Assembly: GCA_030264375.1 (NCBI GenBank)
Contig: JASCQW010000099.1
Coordinates: forward strand, 19,135,152-19,199,151
From: Carcharhinus longimanus
Taxonomy: Eukaryota
Length of the DNA stretch: 64,000 nt
Direction of reading: 5' to 3'
Made by a program: the position numbers and the translations under genes. Positions 4,302-21,046 of this stretch are shown piece by piece (positions within the stretch are counted from its first letter, which is position 1; every line of letters starts with the position of its first letter). Under the pieces are notes generated by a model, which saw only the letters and a list, made by a program, of their open reading frames with translations, did no database searches and was not told the DNA's origin.

Positions 4302-4450
4302 AATATACTAAAACACACGGAACCAAATCATCCTGATTATTACCTGCTGCCATTATGCACACATCATTTCCAAACCTTTCTTTCTCGATTCAGCCATCTA
4401 CTCCAGTATAATGAAGAATTGCTAAAACAGAACCAAAAAGGCTTAACTAG
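4302..4450 (+). CDS. ARHGEF33: ARHGEF33 internal coding exon (end of DH/RhoGEF domain)
   Basis: ttgcattatag| ... |gtgagt. Translates NILKHTEPNHPDYYLLPLCTHHFQTFLSRFSHLLQYNEELLKQNQKGLT, aligning to recalled human NVLKFTEQEHPDYYLLLVCVQRLRVFISHYTLLFQCNEDLLIQKRKKLK. Phase 0 to 2, 149 bp. Confidence 0.9.
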
Positions 4451-5299
4451 GTGAGTAACTCTGACACTAGAAACTTTGGAGTTCTGGCAGAACATAAATT
4501 TAATATCTCAATCTTGACTGAAATCCAAACTGACCTGAACTCTCATATAAATGTAGGACTAGCTTGATAATAAGAGACTAAAGCTCACCTTCTACCTTCT
4601 TGGTAGTCACGTGGTTACAATGATAATTATGTTGTTGATTAATCATAGCAATTAATCTCTATCAAATAGTCCTATTCAGGCCCAGACATAGTACCAGGAA
4701 ACCCCTAGTGGTGGAGACCTTTTGTGAATTTTCAGTTCAGAGTCACCTCTTCCTCCCACGCCTGCTACACAGACTGTATGTCTCCTCTCAAGTTACTCCT
4801 AGACTGCATCGTAAAATGTTATTTTATTAAATAAATCAATCTCATTTGCGTTTTATAAGATTTATATCAACTGCTTCTGCTGTCTCCCTTTGTGAGTCTG
4901 TTTTATAGGTTGTTAGATAAAGTGTGATAGCTGGACAGGGGAAAAACAGGAAAATTGTCAAACTCGTTCCACTTTTCCAGAATCCCCTCAATTACTCATA
5001 TCAAACAAGTTCTGGCTACAAGCAGGATAACTGAGTTGTAATCCATTCAACTGCTCCTCATTTTCATGGGACAATGGTCGTGTTACTTCAATGTTTTTTT
5101 TGTAAAGAGAATATTGCTGTATTTTCTGTTTTTTGGTTGTGAGGTAAATAGCCTGGTAGTGGCAGTGGTTTCTATATCATATTTTTAGCCACATTGAAAA
5201 AAGAATTTGGCATGGTTTTCACGTTGCCTCTACAGCAGACAGAATCTGATTCAACCATCCTGCCATCAGTTCAGAGCTTCAATCAGCTGCTTCAATTAA

Positions 5300-5605
5300 A
5301 GGCAACCCAGTGCTCCCGAAATGCTTGTTAAAAGTCCACCAATGAGTATGGCTACAAAGAAGTCTGCCCCAAGGTTCAGTGAGACATCCTTTGCCAGAAT
5401 GCTGGATGCCGTGTATCCCCTGTCACCAAGAAACCAACCTTGTAGCCTCTGTGCTCACTCAAAAATGTTGGGTATCTGAGAATGAAGCATGGCACAGAGG
5501 GCAATGATGATATGGACACTCTCCGAGGACCTAGCACACATCTGTAGGATGCGCTTCATGTGGTCACAGACTTGGTGAACATTAAGGGAGTGGAAGCCCT
5601 TGCAG
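5300..5605. mobile_element. Internally deleted PIF/Harbinger relic
   Basis: + strand MATKKSAPRFSETSFARMLDAV (Myb/SANT ORF start) abuts - strand transposase motifs KGFHSLNVHQVCDH and GWFLGDRGY. Confidence 0.7.
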
Positions 5606-5865
5606 TCATGTGGTGATTTATAGTGATCGTCCCTTTAAGAGCAACACAGCAGAAGAGGGTCCCTTTGTTTGTGAAGCCAACGGAGACTGAGTGCAAGTAA
5701 CCAGCCCAGGGATTGGAGTCCTCTCTAAGGCAGTAGACATACAGGGGACTAGGGCAGCCATGTGGACTGTGTTTCTATTGAAGTTTGTGAAAGTGCATCA
5801 TTACATTTGGTGAAGAGGATAAAATTATCATGACACTTTCTGGCCTGACATTTGTGAGTATCCTA

Positions 5866-6025
5866 TTCTTGACCACCTTGTCCACCTGAGTTGCCAACTT
5901 CAGGGAACTGTAAATCTGCATGCCTAAATCGCTCTGTCTACTAATATTTCTAAGGGCTCTACCATTTACTGTATACTTTCCTTCTGTAATAGACCTTCCA
6001 AATCGCATCACCTCACATTTAACTT
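5866..6025 (-). mobile_element. CR1 LINE RT fragment (inverted partner of the 6879-7665 copy)
   Basis: KCEVMRFGR...Y.VNGRAL...DLGMQIYSSLKLATQVDKVVK. Confidence 0.8.
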
Positions 6026-6177
6026 GTAGATCTATTGGATTGGATGTAGTTTTAGCAAAGGGAAGTCCTAAAAGAGTCTGAAGAAAAAAGGACTCACCTG
6101 AATGCCTGACTTTGGCAAATAGACCCATTTGAGATGTTGACATATTCCCAGATCCTAGCCAGTAGGGTATAAAGTTT

Positions 6178-6503
6178 AGAAATCATAAAACCCTATACTG
6201 AGAAGGAAGTCATTTGGCCCATACAGTCTGAACCGACTCTCCAACAGAGCATCTTACCCAGGCCCTATCTCTATAACCCTACATATTTACCTGTACATCT
6301 TGGGACACTAAAGGACAATTTAGCAAGGCCAATTGACCTAACCTGTATATCTTTGGACTGTGGGAGAAAACTGGAACACCAGGAGGAAATCCGTGCAGGC
6401 ACAGGAAGAATATGCAAACTCTATACAGTCACCCAAGGCTGGAATTGAATCCAGGTCCCTGGCACTGTGTGGCAGCAGTGCTAACCACAGTGCCACTATG
6501 CTG
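6178..6503 (-). mobile_element. HE1-like SINE, tail type B (CR1-like 3' tail)
   Basis: Reverse complement of SINE head/body with a tail related to ...GGGCCAAATGGCCTCCTTCTG...GATTCTATGATT. Confidence 0.85.
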
Positions 6504-6878
6504 CTAAATATATGGAGATGTCACGAATCTGGCTGATGTTAACTGCAAGGGTGTGCCAACTTGGAAACACTGGTCAACGGTGATGTATATTTTTGTCCAT
6601 AGGAACAGTATAAGGGGCCACATGTGATACATAGTGAAAACAGTAACTAGCCCAGTCATAGTATAATACCTATTAAAGACTATTGACTACAGTAAAAAAG
6701 ACACATATACATCAGCAGGACTATGGTAGTCTAAGACAGCTACATACAAGACCACTAAATACACTCACACAGTTTAAGTAGAAATTATCCTCTTGGAACC
6801 AAAGTACATTTACAAGATCTGAACTCTTTCAGGACTTCCCTCAGCTAAAACTACATCCAATCCAATAGATCTACAAGT

Positions 6879-7665
6879 AAAATGTGAGGTGATGCGATTT
6901 GGAAGGTGTAGTATAGAAGGAAAGTATAATCTAAATGGTAGAGTCCTTAAAAATATTAGCATACAGAGGTATCTAGGTGTGCAGATACACAGTTCCCTGA
7001 AGGTGGCAACTCAGGTGGACAAGGTGATCAAAAAGGTGTATGGCTTGCTGGCCTTCATTGGTCAGGATGTTGAATATAGGAATTGAAGAAACATCTTACA
7101 GCTGTATAAGAGTTCAGTTAGGCCACATTTGGAGTATTGTGTACAGTTCTGGTTGTCCCACTACCGGAAGGATGTTGATGCATTGGAAAGGGTGCAGTAG
7201 AGAATTACCAGAATGTTGCCTGGTTTGGAGGATATGGACTATAGAGAAAGGATGAACAAACTTGGATTGTTTTCATTGGAGCATCAGAGGTTGAGAGAGG
7301 ACCTGATGGAGGTTTACAAGATTATGACAGGCTTGGATAGAGTGGAAAGTCAGACTCTTTTTCCCAGGGTCAAAGGGTCAATTACTTGGGGGCGTAGATT
7401 GAGAGTGAAAGAGAGAAAGTTTAAAAGAGATGTAAGGGACAAGTTTTTCCACACAGAGGGTGGTGAATGCCCAGAACGCGCTGCTGGAGGAAGTGGTGGA
7501 AGCAGATTCTATAAAAACGATTAAGAGGCATCTAGGTACATAGGCTGCGAGTAGACGTATATGGACTAGGTAGAGACAAAAAAAATTAGATCAGAGAGGT
7601 AGCTGTGTCAGCATAGACTTGGTTGGGCAAAAGGGCCTGTTCCTGTGCCTTACTGTTCTTTGTTA
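6879..7665 (+). mobile_element. CR1 LINE 3' portion with 3'UTR
   Basis: KCEVMRFGR...ATQVDKVIKKVYGLLAFI...LGLFSLEHQRLREDLMEVYKIMTGLDRV; ends GGGCCTGTTCCTGTGC...TGTTCTTTG. Confidence 0.9.
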
Positions 7666-8099
7666 TAAAGGCTACCTTATGGTTACCTCGCTGTATATGA
7701 TTGAGTAGTTATTCTGGGGAACTTCTCTTCTTAGTGTGTTTTAACAACTCCACCCAAGGTACTCTGCATGCTTTCTTCTGGTCTGCTAACCAGCTCTGCT
7801 TACAGGCTGCTGGCTGGACTCTGCACGTCAGGTTGCTAGTTAAATACTGCCTCCCTCCATCCACAAGAGTGTTGTCATTTGTATCATTGTTTCTCACTGT
7901 ACCTTTGGCTGTCTGTCTCCTTGGCTTCTGTTAGTTTTGACATTGGCATATATATGTCTTCCCTAAATGGTACTATTGTCTCCCCAAAGTATTTCCTAGC
8001 AGTAAGATTATGTATCTCTTTTTTGGTCTATCTACACCTACTAACCTTGTTACTGGGACTCACATCCTGTGAAATACCTTCTGAGGTTCTAGTGGCTTT

Positions 8100-9450
8100 G
8101 AATCTGCTGGCACAGTCATGACAGAAAGAGAGAGATACAAGAGAAAATAACTGTGAGTTTAAGAAAAATAGAACTTGGGCTAAGGAAAAATGAAGAGTTA
8201 CTGCAAAGTTTTTTTTTAAAGAGACAGAACATAGAAAACACATTTTGGTTGAACAGGAAAAAATGCCCTAAGGAGCTGTGTCGAGTTCTCCAGAAACTTG
8301 GGAAAATGAAGAGACTGAAGCTGCCAGGCTCCTGATTGGAGCCAGTGGGAGTTCCATGGCAGCGGTCCCTGCACTGAGGGAATTCAGGCAGCGAAGTTTC
8401 AAAGGTCTACAAAGTAGAGAAGTCCCTCAATCTGTTTGAAATAATAGTTTAAAAGTTTTTGGTAAAAAGATAAAAAGACAATGGCCCTGAATGGACCACA
8501 TGGGACCGCCCAATGAAATTGACAAAAAGTTGAGGGAAAATGGATTCTCCAAATGACTAAAGAAGAAAAATTGCTGAGATTGCTGAGAGAACTTTCCATC
8601 AGCAAGAATAAGTTTTAAAAGTTTTTTAAAAATTAAAAAGAGCTCCAAAGTTGGCACCAAAACTCTAAAAATGTGGAAAGAACATTCAGAGAAAATCAGC
8701 AGCTGTTGGCAGTTAGAAAAAACATGACAATCTTAAAACCGCAATGCATTTAGAAAGAAGCAAACAGCAATGGACTGGAAAATTGGAGAAGACCCCAGAT
8801 AGAGAGCAACTGTCAAAAACTGTCCAGAGACAAAGAAGACCTTGTGGAAGAAGCAATGCAAGACCTCAGAGGAGGAAATGAAGATCTCAGAGGAGGGTAA
8901 TATAAGACCCCAGAAAGAAGATAATGTAAGACCCAGAAAGAGGGCACTGAATGACCCTAAAGAAGCACAGCGAAAGACCCAATGAAAGGAAGGGCAATGA
9001 AAGAATTGCAAAATGGAAATAAGATAACATTTTCGTTGGAGAAGACCTGACCAACAGTGAAGTCAAAAGGGCTTGGTTGAAGTTAAGACAAGTAGAAACA
9101 GGTTCCATCTGTGAAATATATTATCCAGTCAGAACAAGATGGATTTCTCTTGGAAGAAACACAGAAATTAAAGATTTGAAAAGAAATTAGGATCTACTGA
9201 ACATAAACTGGAAATAGTAAAAAGAATTAAAGCTCTAAAGAAGACATTAAAACAACAAGATGAAATTTCTCAGCAAACTTGAAAAAAGTGGCAAAAATTT
9301 ATCAAATGAAGTTAAGAAAAAGGAGAACTTAATGCGACAATGGAGAATAAGCCGAACTCAGGCAGTGGATGTCCAAGCCATACCAGTTTCTGGAAAAAGT
9401 TGCACAGTTGAATCATTCTGTCCTTGGACAGACAAAGACATTATCGACAG
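8100..9450 (+). mobile_element. Possible decayed endogenous-retrovirus gag-like region
   Basis: Purine/A-rich broken ORFs with coiled-coil character ending FCPWTDKDII, reminiscent of the (Y/F)RPWT motif of fish ERV Gag; no pol seen. Confidence 0.3.
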
Positions 9451-11354
9451 TGATGCTCACTCACCTCTCAGAGGTCAGGTGCTGTCTGTAGACCCTGAGC
9501 CATAGAAAGCCTCCAAAGGCTTTCAGGGTCTCTCCTACAGAAATGGAGCAGGCCCTGCCATCTCTTCCTCCTCAGGATTCAGCTCATGCCTCTTGAGAAC
9601 TAGGTGCTTCTGTTGAGAACATCGCTCCTCTCAACAGGCTAGAAGAATGATAGCCAATTATCCATCTCTCTCTTGTGCTACACACTGCAAAGGGAAAGAG
9701 AAAGCAAACATTAGGAATTTGCCTCCCTGAGTTGACCTTTTGCCCCTCAACCGATGTTAGCAGCGTCTCAATGGTAACTGACTGCTGTGCTAGCCATCAC
9801 ATTGAGGACCTTTCCCATACAGTCTCCCAAAGCACACATTACCCACATCACCCTTTCACCACTCAGAGCGAGAGCTAAAACTTTGGAAACCCTCCTGAGC
9901 TCTCATGTAAGATGCTTCTTGGGCACTGCGTGCTACCCTGTCAAAGGGGGAGAGGGGAAGTGGGGGGGGACCTTGTAAGGACACCGCAGCACCCACATGT
10001 TTTGGAGCAGCATGCTCCACTAAATCTTTTAGCCTTTGTCCTTTGTTAACAAGCCTTCTCAGCAAATGGTGCAGGAACATCATGGTATTAACAGAATTGG
10101 GAAGTCTGTTCATCAGTAGGCATAATTCACTCAGCTGGCAAAGTAAAGGAATATTAATAGACTAGCAGTTCAATGATCTGGATGGCAAAAGTATACTTAT
10201 TGATGTCTTGCCTCTCTGTCAGAGTTAANNNNNNNNNNNNNNNNNNNNNNNNNNNNNNNNNNNNNNNNNNNNNNNNNNNNNNNNNNNNNNNNNNNNNNNN
10301 NNNNNNNNNNNNNNNNNNNNNNNNNNNNCTCTCTGTCAGAGTTAACATACTCAGTCATGAACTCACAGGCAACCTTGCATCCCCATCTTGGTAGATCCTA
10401 GGTTGTCAACTGGACAATCAGTCAACCCACCAGCCTAGGCTTCCCTTTCTAGTGTCAGGGCCCTTCAAGGATGCAGAGCTGAAGATGACAGCCTCAAGAT
10501 GGATCAGCTTTAAAAATAGCTTCTTTCCCCTCTCAGTGATGATTCCTCCCCCTTTCAGGGGCCAAACCATTTCCCCTTCTTAGTAAGAGGCCATTGCCAC
10601 TGTGACCCCCCCCATGCCTCCGTGCACCGCCCGGGGNNNNNNNNNNCCTCCCCCCACTGACTCTCCCCCCCTTGTAAACAGTCCTACCATTTCAAACCTC
10701 CAAAGTCCCCTAAACTTCACTCCAGCTGCTTGGCCAGTCCGCAAATTCACTACCCCCTTCCTCTTCCACCTACCTGTCCTCAACCCTTGCATGGAAAGCA
10801 GGGTTGCCCCCTGGAACCTCAAGCCCCATCACCTGGTTATTTCTAGGTTCAGCCCTAGAACCCAAAACCCTATTGTCTGGTGTGTGTTTTCCCCTACCCC
10901 ACTTCCCCACTCTCCCAGTTCAGCCATGTGTCTTTGCCTCCTTTGACCTTCAACCCTCCTCACCCTGATGGCCCGAGACCCTCTATTTGCTCTGACCTTC
11001 AACTGCGCACCCCTCCCCACACAAACACACACACAAACACCCCCTTACCCCCACCCCCGCGTCCATATTCTGAGACTCTTTGCTTCTCTGACCTTCAACT
11101 GTGCCCTCTTTGAGGCAAGGAAACAGAAAAAAATCCCAAGGCCAAAAAGTAAAAAGTACTTTCAAAAATTCCTCTCTGCCCTTTCAGGGAATCAAATCAA
11201 GTCCAGGAGATCACCTCTTCAAGAGGAAAGAGCTCTATGTATTAACTCCCTCCCCTTTCACGTGGATTATTACTCCAATTTAAGCTGTTTTATCAAAGTT
11301 TGCAGAATGCACAAATTATTTATATTCCTTGTTGCATTTATCAGCATTTATAAT

Positions 11355-11960
11355 GTACTGGTAGGTAAGTAAGTTATGAAGAGGACATACCGAAGTTATA
11401 AAGGATCATAGATAGATTAAGTGAGTGGGAAAGAATCTTGCAAATGAAAGATAGTGTGGGCAAATATGAAATTATCCATTTTGGCAAGAAGAATTGAAAA
11501 TAAGCAAATTATCTAAATGGTGAGAGATTGCAGATCTCTGAGATTTAGAGGAATCTGTTCCACTGCAGGAATTGCAAAGGGCTAATGTGCAGGTACAGCA
11601 AGTAATTAGTAAAGCTAATAGAATACTATAATTTATAACAAGGGGAATTGAATACAAAAGTAGAAAGGTTATGTTTTAGTTGTACAGGACACTGGTGAGA
11701 CAACATCTGGATTACTGTGTACAGTATTGGTCTACTTTTTTAGGGAGGATGTAAATACATCAGAAGCCGTTCAGAGAAGGTTTACTGGACTGATACCAGG
11801 AATGGGCAGGTTGTCTTATAAGGAAAGTTGGACAGGCTGGTTTTGTGTCCACTGGAGTTTAGAAGAGTAAGAGGTCACATGATTGAAACTTTTAAAACCC
11901 TGAGGGACATGGTGGATGTAGAGGGGTTCCCTCTTATGGGAGGATCTAGACCTAAGGAGT
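11355..11960 (+). mobile_element. Degenerate CR1 LINE RT 3' fragment
   Basis: Motifs LYRTLVRQHLDYCVQYW, EAVQRRFTGLIPGMGRLSY, LEFRRVRGHMIETFKTL. Confidence 0.85.
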
Positions 11961-14359
11961 CACTTTGTTTTCCATCTAGAAATTGGACTTCAATCTACTG
12001 CCATCCCTTTTAATATTATATTTTAGGATGCATATAGTAATGCCCTAAGTCCAGGCCAAAATTGACTTGATTTGCTACCTTCCCCATTAATTGCACTTAA
12101 AGTTGCATTGTTGTGACTACCATTAATTTTATGCGCATAACTTGTATTATATAACTATTGTGCACTCACTCCAATTTGCTGGAGAAACAATTCTGCTTCA
12201 ATGGGGGTTTCTACTGGAGTTTTCGTCACAACTCTGTCTGCTGTAGTTTGTTATGATTAATTAGATTCTGTTTGCTGCACTCTCCCAAAAAAATTCTAAG
12301 TGTTTAATTCGCATAAAAACTGGAGTAAATCCTGCTGTTTTTTTCAGCGGAATTTTCAAAATGAATCTCCCATACTCTGTGCATTGTAGAGTGTACGAGC
12401 ATGAATTACGCTGATTCCCAATGGGCAGAGCCTATTCTTGCTGAAGAGGTTGGCAATATAGCACTGAGTAGGCCACTGTGCACGTGCCGATCTATCAGTG
12501 CCCAGATTGGCACATGCACAGTGGCTCCCACACTGCCGGCCTCCCGATCGCTGGCGCGTTCGATTGCGGGCCAAGTCCTCCACCCNNNNNNNNNNCCCAG
12601 GTGTATTTGGGCAAGCCTCCCCCACCTCGGCAACCCTTTCATCCTCTGACCTCCTGGGGATCTCGATAGCCACCCTTCCATCCAGTGGGGTCAGGCCATC
12701 AGCTCCCCATTAGTGGGAAGCTATTGTAAACCCTGTGGAGTGAAACACTTCTGGGTTTATGCATGTGGGTCCATAGACTTCAGTACCAGACCTGCTAATG
12801 AGATGTAAATCCGATTTTAAGTAAGTTATGCAGCTCCGCACTGATTTCTGGCATGGAGCTGATGGCACCGGAAATCTAGCGACTGGAGACTCGCCAAGGC
12901 TGTGGCACCCAGCGGAAAGCCTGCTACAGGGTCTCTGCCCAAGCCCGCTATTGGGTCTCCTGGAAGCAGTGCAGTGGGCTGGGAGAATCGCCCTCACGAG
13001 TGGGATTTTACACCTCAACCTCCAGCAGCATGTTTTCTGTAAGCAGAATGAGCCAATATTGGGATCCTCTGGTGTTGTGTGTTTCTCACTGGCTGAAATA
13101 CTGGGGAACACAGGTGGTCACCGTCGGCAAAACTGATGGGAAAAATTCAGTCCTGTGTTTGCTGTGACACTCTCTGTTTGTCTCTATTTGCTGAGTAAAT
13201 AAACACTTTGCTGTAAATCCTAGCCTGTCTCCAACTCATCAACTGACATGGTGGTGCCATTACTCCCTCTGGGATTCTCTGCCACCATTTTGAGCAGGCA
13301 GGAAAGCCGGTGAATCTGGAGAATGCAATGAGAGTCTCCAAACAGCTTTTACGCTGGCAGAGTTTCCCAATCAGATTGTTCCCCCACTCCCTCCCCCCCA
13401 GTTATTGCTGTATAATCCCTTATATTAGGAATCATCTCCTGCCAAGGTGATGTCACATCGGTGAGATTTACAACAGGTCTGGGCCACGGAGACCTGGCGA
13501 ATAGTCCACACCAGGGGCACACAGGTAGGTATAACTCCCGGAGGGAGGGGGTCATGCCCATGCAATACCCTGGCAGTGCCAGTGACACAACTGGGACTTC
13601 CTTTGGGAGATTCAGGGTGAGTAGGGTTTACTGGGGAGGGCTGTCATGTCTGTGAAGGGAACCCTGTGTCCGTGGGAAGTTCCTTGGACTCGGTCTTTTT
13701 ATTTGTTTTTGTTTTTGATTGGGGCACCCTTTTAAAAAATCTCTCAGCAGCCGAGGTTGCAGGCAGTTCGGGCCCATTCAGAGTCTGCCCCACGAGCATG
13801 AAGTTGCGAGACCCCTCCCTTAACTTATTTTTTATGTAAGTGTTTGAAGAACAGTAGGAAATCCCAACAAGGCAATTGATGGTTTGTCCTCCACTTTTTT
13901 TGCCTGAGACAACACTGAAGAAAAAAATTGGAAAATTCCACCCTGTACATTTTATCATTTTGAATATGATATTAGGAAACCATATTGGGTGGGATTCACC
14001 CCCTCACCCCACCCACACACCCCTCCTCCACCCCCCCCACTCGCCCCCAAATTGTGGGGTATTTTGGAGGTGGAGGCAGTTTACCATTGGCCTCTAGTGG
14101 AATCTTCTTGTCCCACCGATGTACATGACATTTTGTGTGGCTTGCCCATCCTGCTGCTGAGGGTCACTTTCAATGACACCAGGAAACCCTGGAAGGGGCA
14201 GAAAGTCCCACCCATTGTTTACTGCTTCCCACTGATAAAAGTCACACAAATAAAATACATATCAGTAGACAGATAGACCAGAGGAGTAAAAATGTGTTGC
14301 TTGCAGGACACCTAACCCTCTCTGAAATCCTTTACCAAAAAATCAGACTCTTCCCTATT

Positions 14360-14465
14360 TCTCCTACATTGCAACAATGATTATCTTTCAAAAGTACTTC
14401 AATATCTGTGAACTGCTTCGAAACATCCAGAATCTATGAAAATCATTTTGTAAGTGCAAGTCTTT
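14360..14465 (+). mobile_element. Deu-domain (SacSINE1-like) SINE 3' fragment
   Basis: CCTACATTGCAACAATGA...TCAAAAGTACTTCA...GTGCAAGTC resembles the tails of the copies at 42110 and 60346. Confidence 0.5.
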
Positions 14466-14904
14466 GATTTTCCCCAAACCTTGTGATGCACAAGGAACTT
14501 GGCAATGCCTTTTAAAATGGTTAAGTCCTACATGTAAAAAAGGTACAGTAGAGATAATTTAATGTATTAATGGTACAACAACCTTTACTGTTAGGGCATT
14601 TCAGGAAGTTGTTATCTGTGATTAACGTATGTTTTGTTTTGTTTTCAAGAGATAATGAGCATATAGTGTAAATGTACTCACTCCACAATTATCTTCAGTA
14701 CAGCCTTCACTGCTTTTATACTTATTTTTCTTCATTTGACTCAATAACCAAAATTGAATCTGTTACATAAAGAGACTGCTTCATCAGTGACAATAAGTCA
14801 CTTCATTAGGGAAGACCTCACAACTCACGAGTTCCACAGTCATGAGCAAAGTCATCAGGAGACTTTTAGTACCCTGTGGGCGAAAAGCCTCTGACTAGGT
14901 TTTT

Positions 14905-15255
14905 TACACATATATGAAGAGCAAGAGGGTGGCCAGGGAGAGGGTTGGCCCACTCAAGGACAGGGGAGGGAATCTATGTGCGGAGCCAGAGGAAATGGGC
15001 GAGGTGTTAACTGAGTACTTTGCGTTAGTATTCACCAAAGAGAAGGACTTGGTGGAGGATGGGTGGGAAAGGGTGCGTAGATAATTTGAGTCATGTTGGG
15101 ATCAAATAAAAGAAGTATTGGGGTTCTTGAGAAACGTTAAGGTAGACAAGTTCACAGGGCCTGATGGGATATATCCCAGAATACTGAGAGAGGCAAGGGA
15201 GGAAATTGCTGGGGCCTTGAGAGGAATCTTTGATTCCTTACTGGCTACAGGGGAA
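14905..15255 (+). mobile_element. CR1 LINE ORF2 internal fragment
   Basis: NLCAEPEEMGEVLTEYFALVFTKEKD ... KVDKFTGPDGIYPRILREAREEIAGAL. Confidence 0.85.
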
Positions 15256-15264
15256 TAGCAGGTT

Positions 15265-15464
15265 AGTTGTAAAGACTCGCATTCTAATCAGTAAACTGTC
15301 TGTGCTGTTATATGCTCTGAGGCCAGAACTCTCCATTCACCTGACAAAGGGGCTAACCCCGAAAGCTTGTGAGTTTACTATCAAATAAATCGGTTGGACT
15401 AAAACCTGGTGTTGTCAGATTTTTTACTGTGTTTACCCCAGTCCAATGCCAGCATATCCACATC
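15265..15464 (+). mobile_element. Penelope-like terminal-repeat fragment carrying a hammerhead motif
   Basis: ATTCAC CTGACAA A GGGG CTAA CCCC GAAAGCTT GTGAGT, then AAATAAA...CCTGGTGTTGTCAGA...CCCAGTCCAATGCCAGCATATCCACATCA; same family at 50172, 53718 and 55766. Confidence 0.75.
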
Positions 15465-15650
15465 AATTTGGCATTGCCAGTTAACCAAACCTGCACATCT
15501 TTGGAGTATGGGAGGAAACCGGACCACCCGGAGGAAACTCGCATAGACACGGGGAGAATGTGCAAACTCCCCACACTGACCCAAAGCTGGAATTGAACCT
15601 GGATTGCTGGCTCTGAGGCAGCTGTGCTAACCACTGTGTCATTGTGCTAC
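15465..15650 (-). mobile_element. HE1-like SINE 5' part
   Basis: Reverse complement of head and body. Confidence 0.8.
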
Positions 15651-16005
15651 CCCCAAAAAGAATAACTAATTTGTCTGTACTTCATTGTTACCACTAGGCA
15701 GTGGAAATGGATAACCAAAATAAGTAATTTTTTAAAAAGAGCAAAAAGAATGGTAAATATGTATGATATTAAGTTGGAGGAATGTTAGTATTCTCTTATA
15801 GTTTTGGGAATTCATATCAGGCTAATTCCTAAATCTAATCCTGTTGTGTTGGAAATTGAGTGGATTAAACTTTTCACAGCAATTGGGCTCGTATATTTAC
15901 AATCTCCAAATTGCAACTTGAAATTCAAATTTTTATTGAAATTTAGTTTAGGTTGGTGTAACATTAACTGTATTGGATTTATTTGTTTTTTTTAATTCTC
16001 AAAAG

Positions 16006-16142
16006 AGGACTACACAGAGGACTTGCTGCAGCTGCATAACCTGGAGCTCAATCGACTAAAGCAGTATTATCAAGCACACCAACAACTGTTTGACGGTGTC
16101 TGCAAATGGGAAGAAAATTGGAAGCTTTATCTAAGTTTTGAG
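16006..16142 (+). CDS. PRC1: PRC1 (MAP65/Ase1 family) internal exon, isolated inside an ARHGEF33 intron
   Basis: tttaattctcaaaag| ... |gtgaga; 137 bp, phase 1 to 0. (E)DYTEDLLQLHNLELNRLKQYYQAHQQLFDGVCKWEENWKLYLSFE vs recalled human EDYTESLLQLHDAEIVRLKNYYEVHKELFEGVQKWEETWRLFLEFE. Confidence 0.85.
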
Positions 16143-16394
16143 GTGAGATGCTAAAATTTATATAGACTAGGACTTGGATTCTGTTACTAAGGTCATTGTG
16201 ATTTAAGCAGATTGTATTGTAATTTTACTGTCACTCAAACCCCTACCAATGATGGAGTTCCTGCTCAAGCAACGATATTAGAGGCTACTGTTGTTGCTGA
16301 AACCCAAGGCTACCACTTTGACTTGATCAGCTCGTTTAATCAGGTTGAAGGAAACGTCAAAAGTAAAACTATTTTTAAACTGTTCTTTTTGCAG

Positions 16395-16490
16395 AAGAAA
16401 GCAGCAGATCCAAACCGCTTCACCAACCGAGGGGGCAATCTATTGAAAGAGGAGAAGCAGAGAACAAAGCTCTACAAAATGCTGCCTAAA
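16395..16490 (+). CDS. PRC1: PRC1 next exon (MAP65 signature motif)
   Basis: ttctttttgcag| ... |gtatgt; 96 bp, phase 0 to 0. KKAADPNRFTNRGGNLLKEEKQRTKLYKMLPK vs recalled human RKASDPNRFTNRGGNLLKEEKQRAKLQKMLPK. Confidence 0.9.
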
Positions 16491-16847
16491 GTATGTGACG
16501 TAGTGTCTATGTCTTGAATATCATATATAAAAGCTGTGGTTTACATGAATATTCCAATAATAGCACTAGTGACACTCTGATACTCATTACTAATGTCATT
16601 GCAGTAAAATTGGCTGTCTTTATTTAAGCAGAGCGGGTGAACACTTGAGCAAAAGTATCTGCTGAATGAGACTCATTCTGATTTGAAAGGATAGTAAATG
16701 AACTCAGCAGGAATCAATACTAGCACCTAGTTTTAAAAATCTGATACAGCAAATATATAATTTAAGTCTGGTCTGTCGTTTAATTAGATTATGGAATTTC
16801 CTTTTACCTGATTTTGCATATGATCTGCAGTAGCATATCGCTTATAG

Positions 16848-17100
16848 GTGACACGGTGGTACAGTGGTTAGCACTGCTGCCTCTCAGTGCCAAGGACCAG
16901 GGTTTCATTTCACATCGGGTCACCTTGAGTCTGTACGTTTTGAAAGATGTGCTGGTTAAGTGCATTGACTATACTAAATTCTCCCTCAGTGTACCTGAAC
17001 AGGTGCTGGAGTTTGGTGACTAGGGGATTTTCACAGTGCCTTCATCAAAATGTTAATGTAAGCCAAATTGTGATGCTAATAAATAATGTTTTTTTAACTT
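16848..17100 (+). mobile_element. HE1-like SINE, tail type A, internally deleted
   Basis: Head GACACGGTGGTACAGTGGTTAGCACTGCTGCC and type A tail. Confidence 0.85.
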
Positions 17101-17137
17101 TATAACGTTATATATTTTATGAAATTAAAGTCTACGT

Positions 17138-17453
17138 ATCATAGAATCCCTACAGTACAGTACAGAAGAAGGCCAATTGGCCCATTGAGTCTGCATCAAC
17201 CACAACCCCACACGGGTCCTATTCCCACAACCCCACATATTTTACCCTGCTAATCCCCTGATGCCAACAGACAATTTATCATGGCCCATCAACCTAACCC
17301 GCACATCTTTGGACTGTGGGAGGAAATTGGAACACCCTGAGGAAACCCACACAGACATGGGGAGATTGTGCAAATTCCGCACAGTGACTCAAGCTGGGAA
17401 TTGAACCCGGGACCCTGGTGCTGTGAGGCAGCAGTGCTAACCACTGTGCCACC
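17138..17453 (-). mobile_element. HE1-like SINE, tail type B
   Basis: Full reverse-complement copy starting ATCATAGAATCCCTACAGT on +. Confidence 0.9.
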
Positions 17454-18359
17454 CCTATCCTGAAATTTTAATTTGACTTCATGTTTACACTTCCACTGCC
17501 CTTTTGTGCATGCTGATTTCATGCCTGACTGTTAGCTCTACTTTGTGTTATTGTCTCCTTATTCTGATACATCCTGGTAGCACAAATTGCTTTCGTTTAC
17601 CTACCCTCAGGCCAATTTATACTTTGCAATGCATGCCCGGAACAGAATATAACGTTCCATGTGAAGTCTCTGTATAACTGAAGTCAATCTGCATATNNNN
17701 NNNNNNNNNNNNNNNNNNNNNNNNNNNNNNNNNNNNNNNNNNNNNNNNNNNNNNNNNNNNNNNNNNNNNNNNNNNNNNNNNNNNNNNNNNNNNNNNGAAG
17801 AGGCGACATTATTTAGGGGGCAGATGTGACCCTTGACCCCATCAGAACGTTAATACCTGTGAAGGTTTTGAGTCTTTAATGTGATTGAAAACACCAAAAC
17901 AATTGTCAGATTATTATGATACTTGGTGTAGACACCACAAGGCTTTGTTAAATATCCAGAATGAACTCAAATCCATTTAATATTTGTCTCTCTTTGTTAT
18001 TTAGTGTGAATTATCAGTTGACCCTGAAATTAAATTATTTGCAACTGTTAAGGTAAAAGACCTGTAAATATACTGTTGTAACAAAAGTTTTATCCTTATT
18101 TTCCTTTGTGATGGAGATGGTTCACTAAATTTTGAAAAATTAAATTTCAAAATGCTGTGAATTTTAGGCACATTAGCATTCCTCAGTTTTTCTGCTTAAA
18201 AAAGATTTATTTTCACTCCAAAAACTGTGTACAGTAGAATAGTAGTTGTGCTACTGACGAGTAATCCAGAGGCTTAGACTCATGAACATGCTCAAATCAA
18301 ATCATGGTATCTGGGGTATTTAAATTCAGTTAGTTAAATAAATGTGGAATAAAAAGCTA

Positions 18360-18565
18360 ACATCTGGAATGCACTGCCAGGGGTGGTTGTGCAGGCAGAT
18401 ATGATAGGGGCGCTTAAGGGGCTTTTAGATAAGTACATGAATATGCAAGGAATAGAGGGACACGGACCAAGTGCAGGAAGAAGGAATCAGTTTAATTTGG
18501 CATCATGTTAGGCACAACATCGTAGGCCAAAGGGCCAGTTCCTTTGATGTACTGTTCTGTGTTCT
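18360..18565 (+). mobile_element. CR1 LINE 3' end inserted in another SINE-like relic (~18235-18630)
   Basis: WNALPGVVVQADMIGALKGLLDKYM followed by GGCCAAGGGCCAGTTCC...TGTACTGTTCTGTGTTCT. Confidence 0.75.
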
Positions 18566-19019
18566 TTCAGCAATGACAACTATTAAATTACTGGACTGTC
18601 TATAAACCCATTTGATTCACTAATATCTAGGACTGGTTAGCTTAGTCAGCTAGATGGTTAGAGTGTAAAACTGAATAACACAAACAGTGCAGGTTTAAAT
18701 CCCACACTGGCTGTAGTTCTTGGGGCCTCTGTTCTTGCTTTGCTCCATTGTGATATCATTGCATTGGCAAAATTCAAAATCCTCTGATACTGAAGATGTA
18801 ACATGAAGAGAGAGGGCTTTGGTACAATTATTAAAGTTATTCTAATCCTGAAAATGATGATCCCACAAGAATATCATATCACAATATCAACCATCTGAAA
18901 ATTATTGTAATGTCACATTATATTTCTACAGAAGGGAAGGAGGACATTTTTCTCCTTCTCACGGAACAAGATACCAGTTCTGGGACAGGAAAGAGCTATA
19001 GTGATGGGATGGGTCCACC

Positions 19020-20060
19020 TGGATTGAAAAGTAGAGACGTAGAGAAGTTAATGCTAAATCTGTACAGAAACTTAGAATATTCTATGCAATTTCAGTCACC
19101 TTACTACAAAAAGGCCATGGAGCATCAGAGAGTGTGCAGACTTAAATTTACAAAGGATTATACCAGAAATTTGTGGTATACTGGGTCTCGTCGATTGAAA
19201 AAGAAAGCTGAGGTGTGACTCAGTAAAATTATGGAAGGCTTCATAGAGTGAATGGAGAGAGAATTTTTCCTCTTGTGAGAAAGAGCATTAACTCCAGACC
19301 ATCAATACAAGACAGTATCAAAAAATCCAATAGAAAATTCAGAAGAAACGTCTTTACATAAAAAGTGGTAAATGGAACTCGCTACTTCAGGGAGTGGTTG
19401 AAGCAAATATTATATCTGCTAATATAATATAAGCAAATATAATATGTACTTGGGGGATTTAAGTGAGGCTAGATGAGCATTTAAGGAAGATGGTTAAGAT
19501 AATAGATTCAGATGAGAAAAGAGGGGAGGAGGGTGGAGTGGAATGTAAACACTGCCAAAAACTATTTAGGCTGAATGGCCTGTTTCTGTGCTATATACCC
19601 TTTGTAATTTTCTGTAAGTACTTATCCAAAAGGAAATTACTGCAGATGATGGCAATCTGAAATAAAAAAAACAGGGAGATCTGATGGAAGTGTACAGGAT
19701 TATGACAAATTTAAATAAGCTATGCAAATAAAAGCTGTTCCCATCACCTGATGGTACAAAGACAAGGGGATACGGATTTAAGGTTTTGGTCAAGAGATGT
19801 AGGGGCAATTTGTGAGGAAAAAGCTTTTTACACAATGAGTGGTAATAGCCTTGAATGCATTGCCTTCAAAGGGATGGAAATGGAGATAATCAGTGATTTC
19901 AAAATGAAATTGGATGGGAGCCTCAAGTCATTAAGTTTCCATTTTTATTGAGTACTATTAACTATGGGCTATGGGGACAGAGCAAAGGAATGTGACTGAC
20001 TGGATCGCTCTACAGAAAGTTGACATGGACTCAAATGAGTCAATTTCCTTCTATTGTTCA
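19020..20060 (+). mobile_element. Two tandem degenerate CR1 3' fragments (~19020-19600 and ~19675-20060)
   Basis: MLNLYRNLEYSMQFQSPYYKK; GDLMEVYRIM; CR1-type 3'UTR GGCTGAATGGCCTGTTTCTGTGCT. Confidence 0.7.
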
Positions 20061-20202
20061 TAATACTAACAAAGAGAACATTAGTAATAATATTATCTAT
20101 AGATTGTTTTAGCTGAATGCTATGAGGTTAAAGTTTTTGCTTTACTGATGGAATTGAAGTAGAAAGCTAATTATCATTGATGATTGTTTTTTCTTATTTG
20201 AG

Positions 20203-21046
20203 GTTTGTGATACCATCAGTACAACAAAGCAAGGTGAAAGGGTTGGAGCAGATTCAATATTTGAAGTCAGATGAATGGGAATACACACCAAGAAGGTACC
20301 AGAAACTTGGTAGTATGGACTATACCCCACTTTACACCAGTGACATTGAGCTGGAGTCAAAATTATTGAAAAGCTCATCGGAGCCTGAATGCCAGATTTT
20401 CTGTAAGGAAACCAGGGATGATTTCAACATTAACAAAGCAAAGTCCGCCGTAAGTCACGCAGATCCTATCTGTTTCTCAAAAGATAATGCAAAGGAAATT
20501 ACTCCAGACAACCAATATTTTCTGTACAGAAGATTTGGAGAAAGGACAGGAGAGCAAGCACAGGAAGCTCCAAGTCATCCTGAAGATGAAGAATCCATTC
20601 AAAATGCTTCTTTGCTCGATCAGTGTTCAGTCAGATCTTCAGATTCTAGCTTGGATGTACATTTTATGAAAACATTGAACTACATTCCTGAAAGGGAGTC
20701 TGAAACAATAGATTACTCTATGCAAATCAGACCCTGTCATTCCATCAGTCAAGAAGATTTCACTAACATGTACTGGCACCATTGTTATGAAACAGGACAT
20801 GATATATTTAATGAAACACATTCAGAGATTTATTCCAGCACAGAATACATAAGCAACACCACTGAAAACCTGAAAAATTCTCATTCCTTAAGTAACACTG
20901 GCTGCAGATCACTGAAAACCGAAGGAGGCAACCCGCCTCACATGAAATTATTTATGAAAGAAAGCTCCCAGTGGGCAATTTCTTCAATGCCTAGATCTAA
21001 AGATTACAGCAACCAAACTTCAGATGAGTGGATGGAATCAGAAAAA
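20203..21046 (+). CDS. ARHGEF33: ARHGEF33 large internal coding exon (low-complexity C-terminal region)
   Basis: Longest clean ORF in the window. ttcttatttgag| ... GAAAAA|gtaatt; phase 2 to 0. EDEESIQNASLLDQCSVRSSDSSLDVHFMKTLNY resembles recalled human YDEEPFQAPALFENCSPASSESSLDICFLRPVSF; LKSDEWEYTPRRY resembles GKPSDWELEGRKH. Exact acceptor less certain (GAG). Confidence 0.85.

Follow-up and report, generated by a model that had tools for sequence, protein, structure and literature searches.

The window, a stretch of 64,000 bp from the Carcharhinus longimanus assembly, lies on scaffold C99, along which the ARHGEF33 protein of the basking shark (P0014) maps in order. The ARHGEF33 exon at 4302..4450 (+; aa 411-460 of P0014, 92% identity) ends in a phase-2 donor at 4450, and the next exon, at 20203..21046 (+; aa 460-744), joins this donor in frame. 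Two exons of another gene, PRC1b, are present on the same strand within the 15.7-kb intron between them (4451-20202). For ARHGEF33 aa ~303-345, no matching exon was found at the locus or elsewhere in a search of the shark's own genome, the second search having a stricter first pass. Several gaps lie at window positions -13761 to -4641, and this exon was likely lost in a gap.

Exon A (16006..16142, +) is 137 bp long, enters in phase 1, leaves in phase 0 and encodes PRC1b aa 326-371. Exon B (16395..16490, +) is 96 bp long, has phase 0 on both sides and encodes aa 372-403, with the DPNRF..RGG motif. Both exons have AG/GT ends and they are separated by an intron of 252 bp, just as the first-pass annotation had placed them. 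Its assignment of the exons to the MAP65/Ase1 type also held. The PF03999 (MAP65_ASE1) scores were 41 bits for exon A (profile positions 318-361) and 44.4 bits for exon B (362-394), both above the curated cut-off of 26.9, and exon A corresponds to residues 329-373 of human PRC1 in PDB 4l3i (E 1.9e-15). The nearest proteins (13 matches) come from sharks and rays and carry the name PRC1b. A processed pseudogene, already rejected in the first-pass annotation, is ruled out by the retained intron and by the absence of stops from both exons.

No further PRC1 exon was detected at E<=0.01 in the window and 40 kb on each side (144 kb), extending the earlier statement that the window contains no neighboring ones. 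The rest of the gene was found on scaffold C171. A genome scan with PF03999, in which 17 candidates were scored, gave 12 matches at three places: five on C171, five on scaffold C1 and the two in the window. The C171 matches cover profile positions 2-319 and 395-444, and those in the window cover 310-396. When three full-length shark PRC1b proteins were used as tblastn queries (residue numbers as in P0007), aa 5-325 and 404-613 matched C171 and aa 326-403 matched the window, so that the residues complement each other without overlap or hole. The pattern was the same for all three queries, with a one-residue offset allowed. The main locus therefore lacks exactly these two exons, which is what the first-pass annotation had proposed to look for by tblastn. 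It had also named a gap at the canonical PRC1 locus, with junction reads leading to another scaffold, as evidence against nested exons; for the locus half of this, a gap of 2,954 N (C171:3556982-3559935) was found at precisely these exons, in the intron between the exon ending at aa 325 and the exon starting at aa 404.

The splice phases fit as well. The C171 exon upstream of the gap has phase 1 at its end, exon A brings the frame back to phase 0, and exon B keeps it there. The four exons, two from C171 with A and B between them, joined to 176 codons with no stop, while the C171 exons without those of the window gave a frameshift and a stop at codon 59. The C171 exons contain no stops, and their exon-bounded tblastn matches showed 81-98% identity. 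Full-length PRC1b containing the residues of exons A and B is present in 11 sharks and rays, to which exon A is 87-93% and exon B 94-100% identical. These values fall within the 65-100% spanned by the C171 exons, and the profile of identity to 13 homologues also matches that of the C171 exons. Compared with PRC1b of other sharks and rays, the exons in the window differ only in their place in the assembly, two on C99 and the rest on C171. About 20 kb downstream of PRC1b there is an open frame of 367 codons (C171:3586312-3587412, +).

The matches on C1 belong to a second, divergent PRC1 paralog (C1:136704925-136732704, -), which shares the exon boundaries of PRC1b and is about 41-72% identical to it per exon. 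With tblastn, no match was obtained for its exon covering aa 227-289. This paralog was excluded as the source of the window exons: it has its own counterparts of exons A and B with the same 137- and 96-bp boundaries, and their DNA identity to A and B is 55% and 66%.

The first-pass annotation had presented the two exons as nested in the ARHGEF33 intron, where they would act as poison exons. Its arithmetic was correct in that both produce early stops when spliced to the phase-2 donor at 4450, 11 codons past the junction codon for exon A and 17 codons past it for exon B. An early stop in the host is weak evidence for a poison exon, because most foreign exons would give such stops. Same-strand nested genes and poison exons are a known class of arrangement, and the present case resembles it in that an intron contains foreign exons with canonical splice sites which do not keep the reading frame of the host. 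It differs in that there is no independent gene here, and it is another gene, PRC1b, that requires the exons. The nested reading is left unsupported by the gap for these exons in PRC1b on C171. None of the papers found for PRC1 together with ARHGEF33 described a nested arrangement, as judged by titles or the starts of abstracts.

Repeats connect the two loci further. On C171, the left flank of the gap ends with the 5′ half of a SINE (C171:3556724-3556860), a 13-bp word (C171:3556848-3556860) and then 122 bp of a reversed repeat arm (C171:3556860-3556981). In the window, the order is a forward arm (15263-15427, +), a 36-bp tail (15428-15463), the 13-bp word (15464..15476, +) and the 3′ half of a SINE (15464..15650, +). 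The names SINE and, for the arms, Penelope-like are those that we presume to apply. A high-copy LINE fragment (14897..15254, +), which from its translated motif we take to be CR1-like, abuts the forward arm. When projected on three intact SINE copies from C171, the two halves share exactly 13 bp, the length of the target-site duplication; one further sub-hit pairing, in a tandem SINE copy, gave an overlap of 33 bp. At two of its bases, the 13-bp word departs from the most common SINE form. Throughout the genome, this variant of the duplication occurred in one of 18 left-type junctions, the one on C171, and in one of 11 right-type junctions, the one in the window. The exact left and right junction sequences are each unique in the genome. 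The C171 arm is the inverted partner of the window arm and 94% identical to it, with differences at four places in 122 bp. Since unrelated copies exceed this value, with up to 98% identity to the C171 arm, arm-to-arm identity was dropped as proof of linkage.

Because the exons complement those on C171, the splice phases fit, and the two SINE halves and the 13-bp duplication are shared between the loci, we conclude that the segment in the window originates from PRC1b. Continuity of the intron with C171 was found on the left side, through the split SINE and its private duplication. On the right side, the end at 17696 showed no sequence overlap with the right flank of the C171 gap, which begins at C171:3559936 and at the SINE position where the left-edge insertion also lies. 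This suggests a second split SINE at the right edge, filling part of the remaining gap.

The other 10 right-type insertions at the same SINE position served as controls. In three of them (L034, L036 and L040), the duplication, inverted arm, tail and second duplication were intact over 112-289 bp. The full architecture was missing within 450 bp in the remaining seven: the left copy of the duplication was degenerate in L035, a gap interrupted the sequence just upstream in L038 and L041, and in four the left copy was not found within that distance. In L041, a gap of 2,294 N ends inside the arm. The recurrence of these insertions at one SINE position (18 left-type and 11 right-type exact junctions), with 13-bp duplications and a hairpin structure, hints at a preferred target site within the SINE for this Penelope-like element. 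Two reports describe inverted pLTRs, short extensions at the 3′ side and, as an option, a tail of 30-40 bp for Penelope-like elements (PMC8969392, PMC11167929). The insertion resembles these elements in its inverted 5′ arm and in the 36-bp extension of its forward arm, a length within that range. It is unlike them in that the terminal sequence amounts to only ~200 bp, and no RT or GIY-YIG coding part was seen.

The whole window contains 11 gaps. Those reported earlier around the exons, at 10637, 12586 and 17697, are present, together with one more at 10229. The exons lie in an N-free contig of 5,101 bp (12596-17696), and the first-pass annotation had offered as one option that this contig was mis-scaffolded from the real PRC1 locus. 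The PRC1 origin was borne out, but the misplaced piece is probably smaller than the whole gap-bounded contig, which is too long for the gap of 2,954 N on C171. The part from 15309 to 17696 (2,388 bp) fits that gap and leaves 566 over. The left part of the contig (12596..15258) is likely genuine ARHGEF33 intron. It is likely connected, gap by gap, to the ARHGEF33 exon, because the two sides of the 10-N gap at 12586 carry one repeat family, in order and on the same strand as in one copy in L026, and the sequences flanking the 100-N gap at 10229 overlap by 17 bp at their ends. The 10-N gap at 10637 gave no comparable evidence. For its ~2.3 kb of non-repeat sequence, no second copy was seen among the 40 matches scored. 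With the left part likely belonging to ARHGEF33, the false join likely falls within the repeat arm, and the misplaced piece likely starts near 15263-15463, inside gap-free sequence.

To the right of exon B, 16491..17696 (+) is likely the 5′ part of the PRC1b intron that follows aa 403, and the 100-N gap at 17697..17796 forms the right boundary of the piece. The end of the contig (17460-17696) is single-copy, it overlapped no other contig, and no unplaced contig extending 17696 was found. We compared the gaps of the window and of the C99 and C171 flanks. Terminal overlaps of at least 8 bp were found at 6 of 27 100-N gaps, at none of 23 sized gaps and at none of eight 10-N gaps. At some 100-N gaps the flanks overlap by 9-47 bp (for example, at 10229 and 58595 in the window), and such gaps represent no missing DNA. 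The gap at 17697 was considered as a negative-size gap of this kind; it was uninformative, being without overlap like 21 of the 27.

We consider it very probable that the segment was mis-joined into the ARHGEF33 intron through the high-copy repeat arm, as an error of assembly. The Penelope-like insertion in the intron of PRC1b, with its hairpin shape, would have broken the assembly. The assembler may have entered one high-copy arm from the ARHGEF33 intron and left it through the PRC1b copy. It would thus have brought ~2.3-2.4 kb (about 15300-17696) to C99, with a sized gap remaining on C171. The animal itself would then have an ordinary, intact PRC1b gene, and the intron of its ARHGEF33 would be an ordinary one, from which, we infer, the segment is absent. 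What is confirmed here is the sequence of the assembly, as distinct from the arrangement of the chromosome in the animal. Repeat-mediated misjoins occur in fragmented draft assemblies, and this case resembles them in that the exons are orphaned, the home locus has a gap to match, the junction lies at repeats and a single copy is assembled. It differs in that the home locus is tied to the piece by a private target-site duplication, from sequence alone. A literature search on Penelope misassembly in sharks gave nothing relevant, as far as titles and the starts of abstracts reveal.

Several observations stand against a misjoin. The left join lies in N-free sequence (12596-17696), as a real rearrangement would also leave it. 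The right end has no overlap, seven of the ten control insertions are incomplete, and the other half expected of an insertion was not found on the ARHGEF33 side, where the 20-mer preceding the arm occurs only at that place. Nor did we see a contig bridging the C171 gap: among the contigs listed for four public runs (X1, X2, X6 and X15), the unique ones end at or before the SINE of the left flank. In a run that we guessed to be RNA, the exon before this gap was not covered.

A junction free of gaps, at an arm that is young and high-copy, would also be left by a real and recent DNA-level duplication, in which recombination between Penelope-like arms, or template switching between them, placed a copy of ~2.4 kb of PRC1b in the intron of ARHGEF33. 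If the near-identical copies had then collapsed, one would be assembled on C99 and the source would appear as a gap on C171, so that a single copy plus a gap is expected in this case too. Inclusion of the copied exons in ARHGEF33 would bring the stops after 11 or 17 codons. A search of the 2.68-Gb assembly with 15900-16800 gave one match, rather than the two assembled copies by which a segmental duplication is recognized. A duplication requires an extra biological event where a single assembly error covers everything, and the exons show no decay. Its right boundary is a gap and not a sequenced breakpoint, in an assembly fragmented into 68,774 contigs, with 11 gaps in this window and a break at the same element in L041. 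We therefore regard a duplication as unlikely. If it were true, it would be a very recent same-strand copy, mediated by Penelope arms, that provides ready-made poison exons, that is, exon shuffling at birth.

The sole assembled copy on C99 would also fit a cut-and-paste translocation out of PRC1b, which would leave that gene frameshifted or dependent on trans-splicing; the C1 paralog could in principle compensate. The sized gap of 2,954 N on C171 is, however, a scaffolder's estimate of about the right length for the missing piece. The C171 exons are free of stops at 81-98% identity, and 11 sharks and rays keep a full-length PRC1b with these residues, making a translocation very improbable. Even less credible is a third, interleaved PRC1-like gene, another option of the first-pass annotation, whose remaining exons would lie in gaps or beyond the window. 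The exons are intact with canonical splice sites, and there are many gaps nearby. But 144 kb around them held no other PRC1 exon, and, apart from these two exons, the genome scan of 17 candidates gave matches on C171 and C1 alone. Such a gene is effectively refuted by the residue-exact complementarity with C171, the splice phases and the common intronic target-site duplication.

If the segment was mis-joined through the repeat arm, as we favor, this assembly would transfer pieces of kilobase size from one scaffold to another where hairpin repeats occur, even within gap-free sequence. PRC1b would then be annotated wrongly as frameshifted in it, and other cases of nested exons from this genome would need the same check of the home locus. 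Matching of private target-site duplications may offer a cheap, read-free way to return such pieces to their loci. For the biology of this shark, the arrangement is most likely unimportant, as PRC1b and ARHGEF33 would be ordinary genes.
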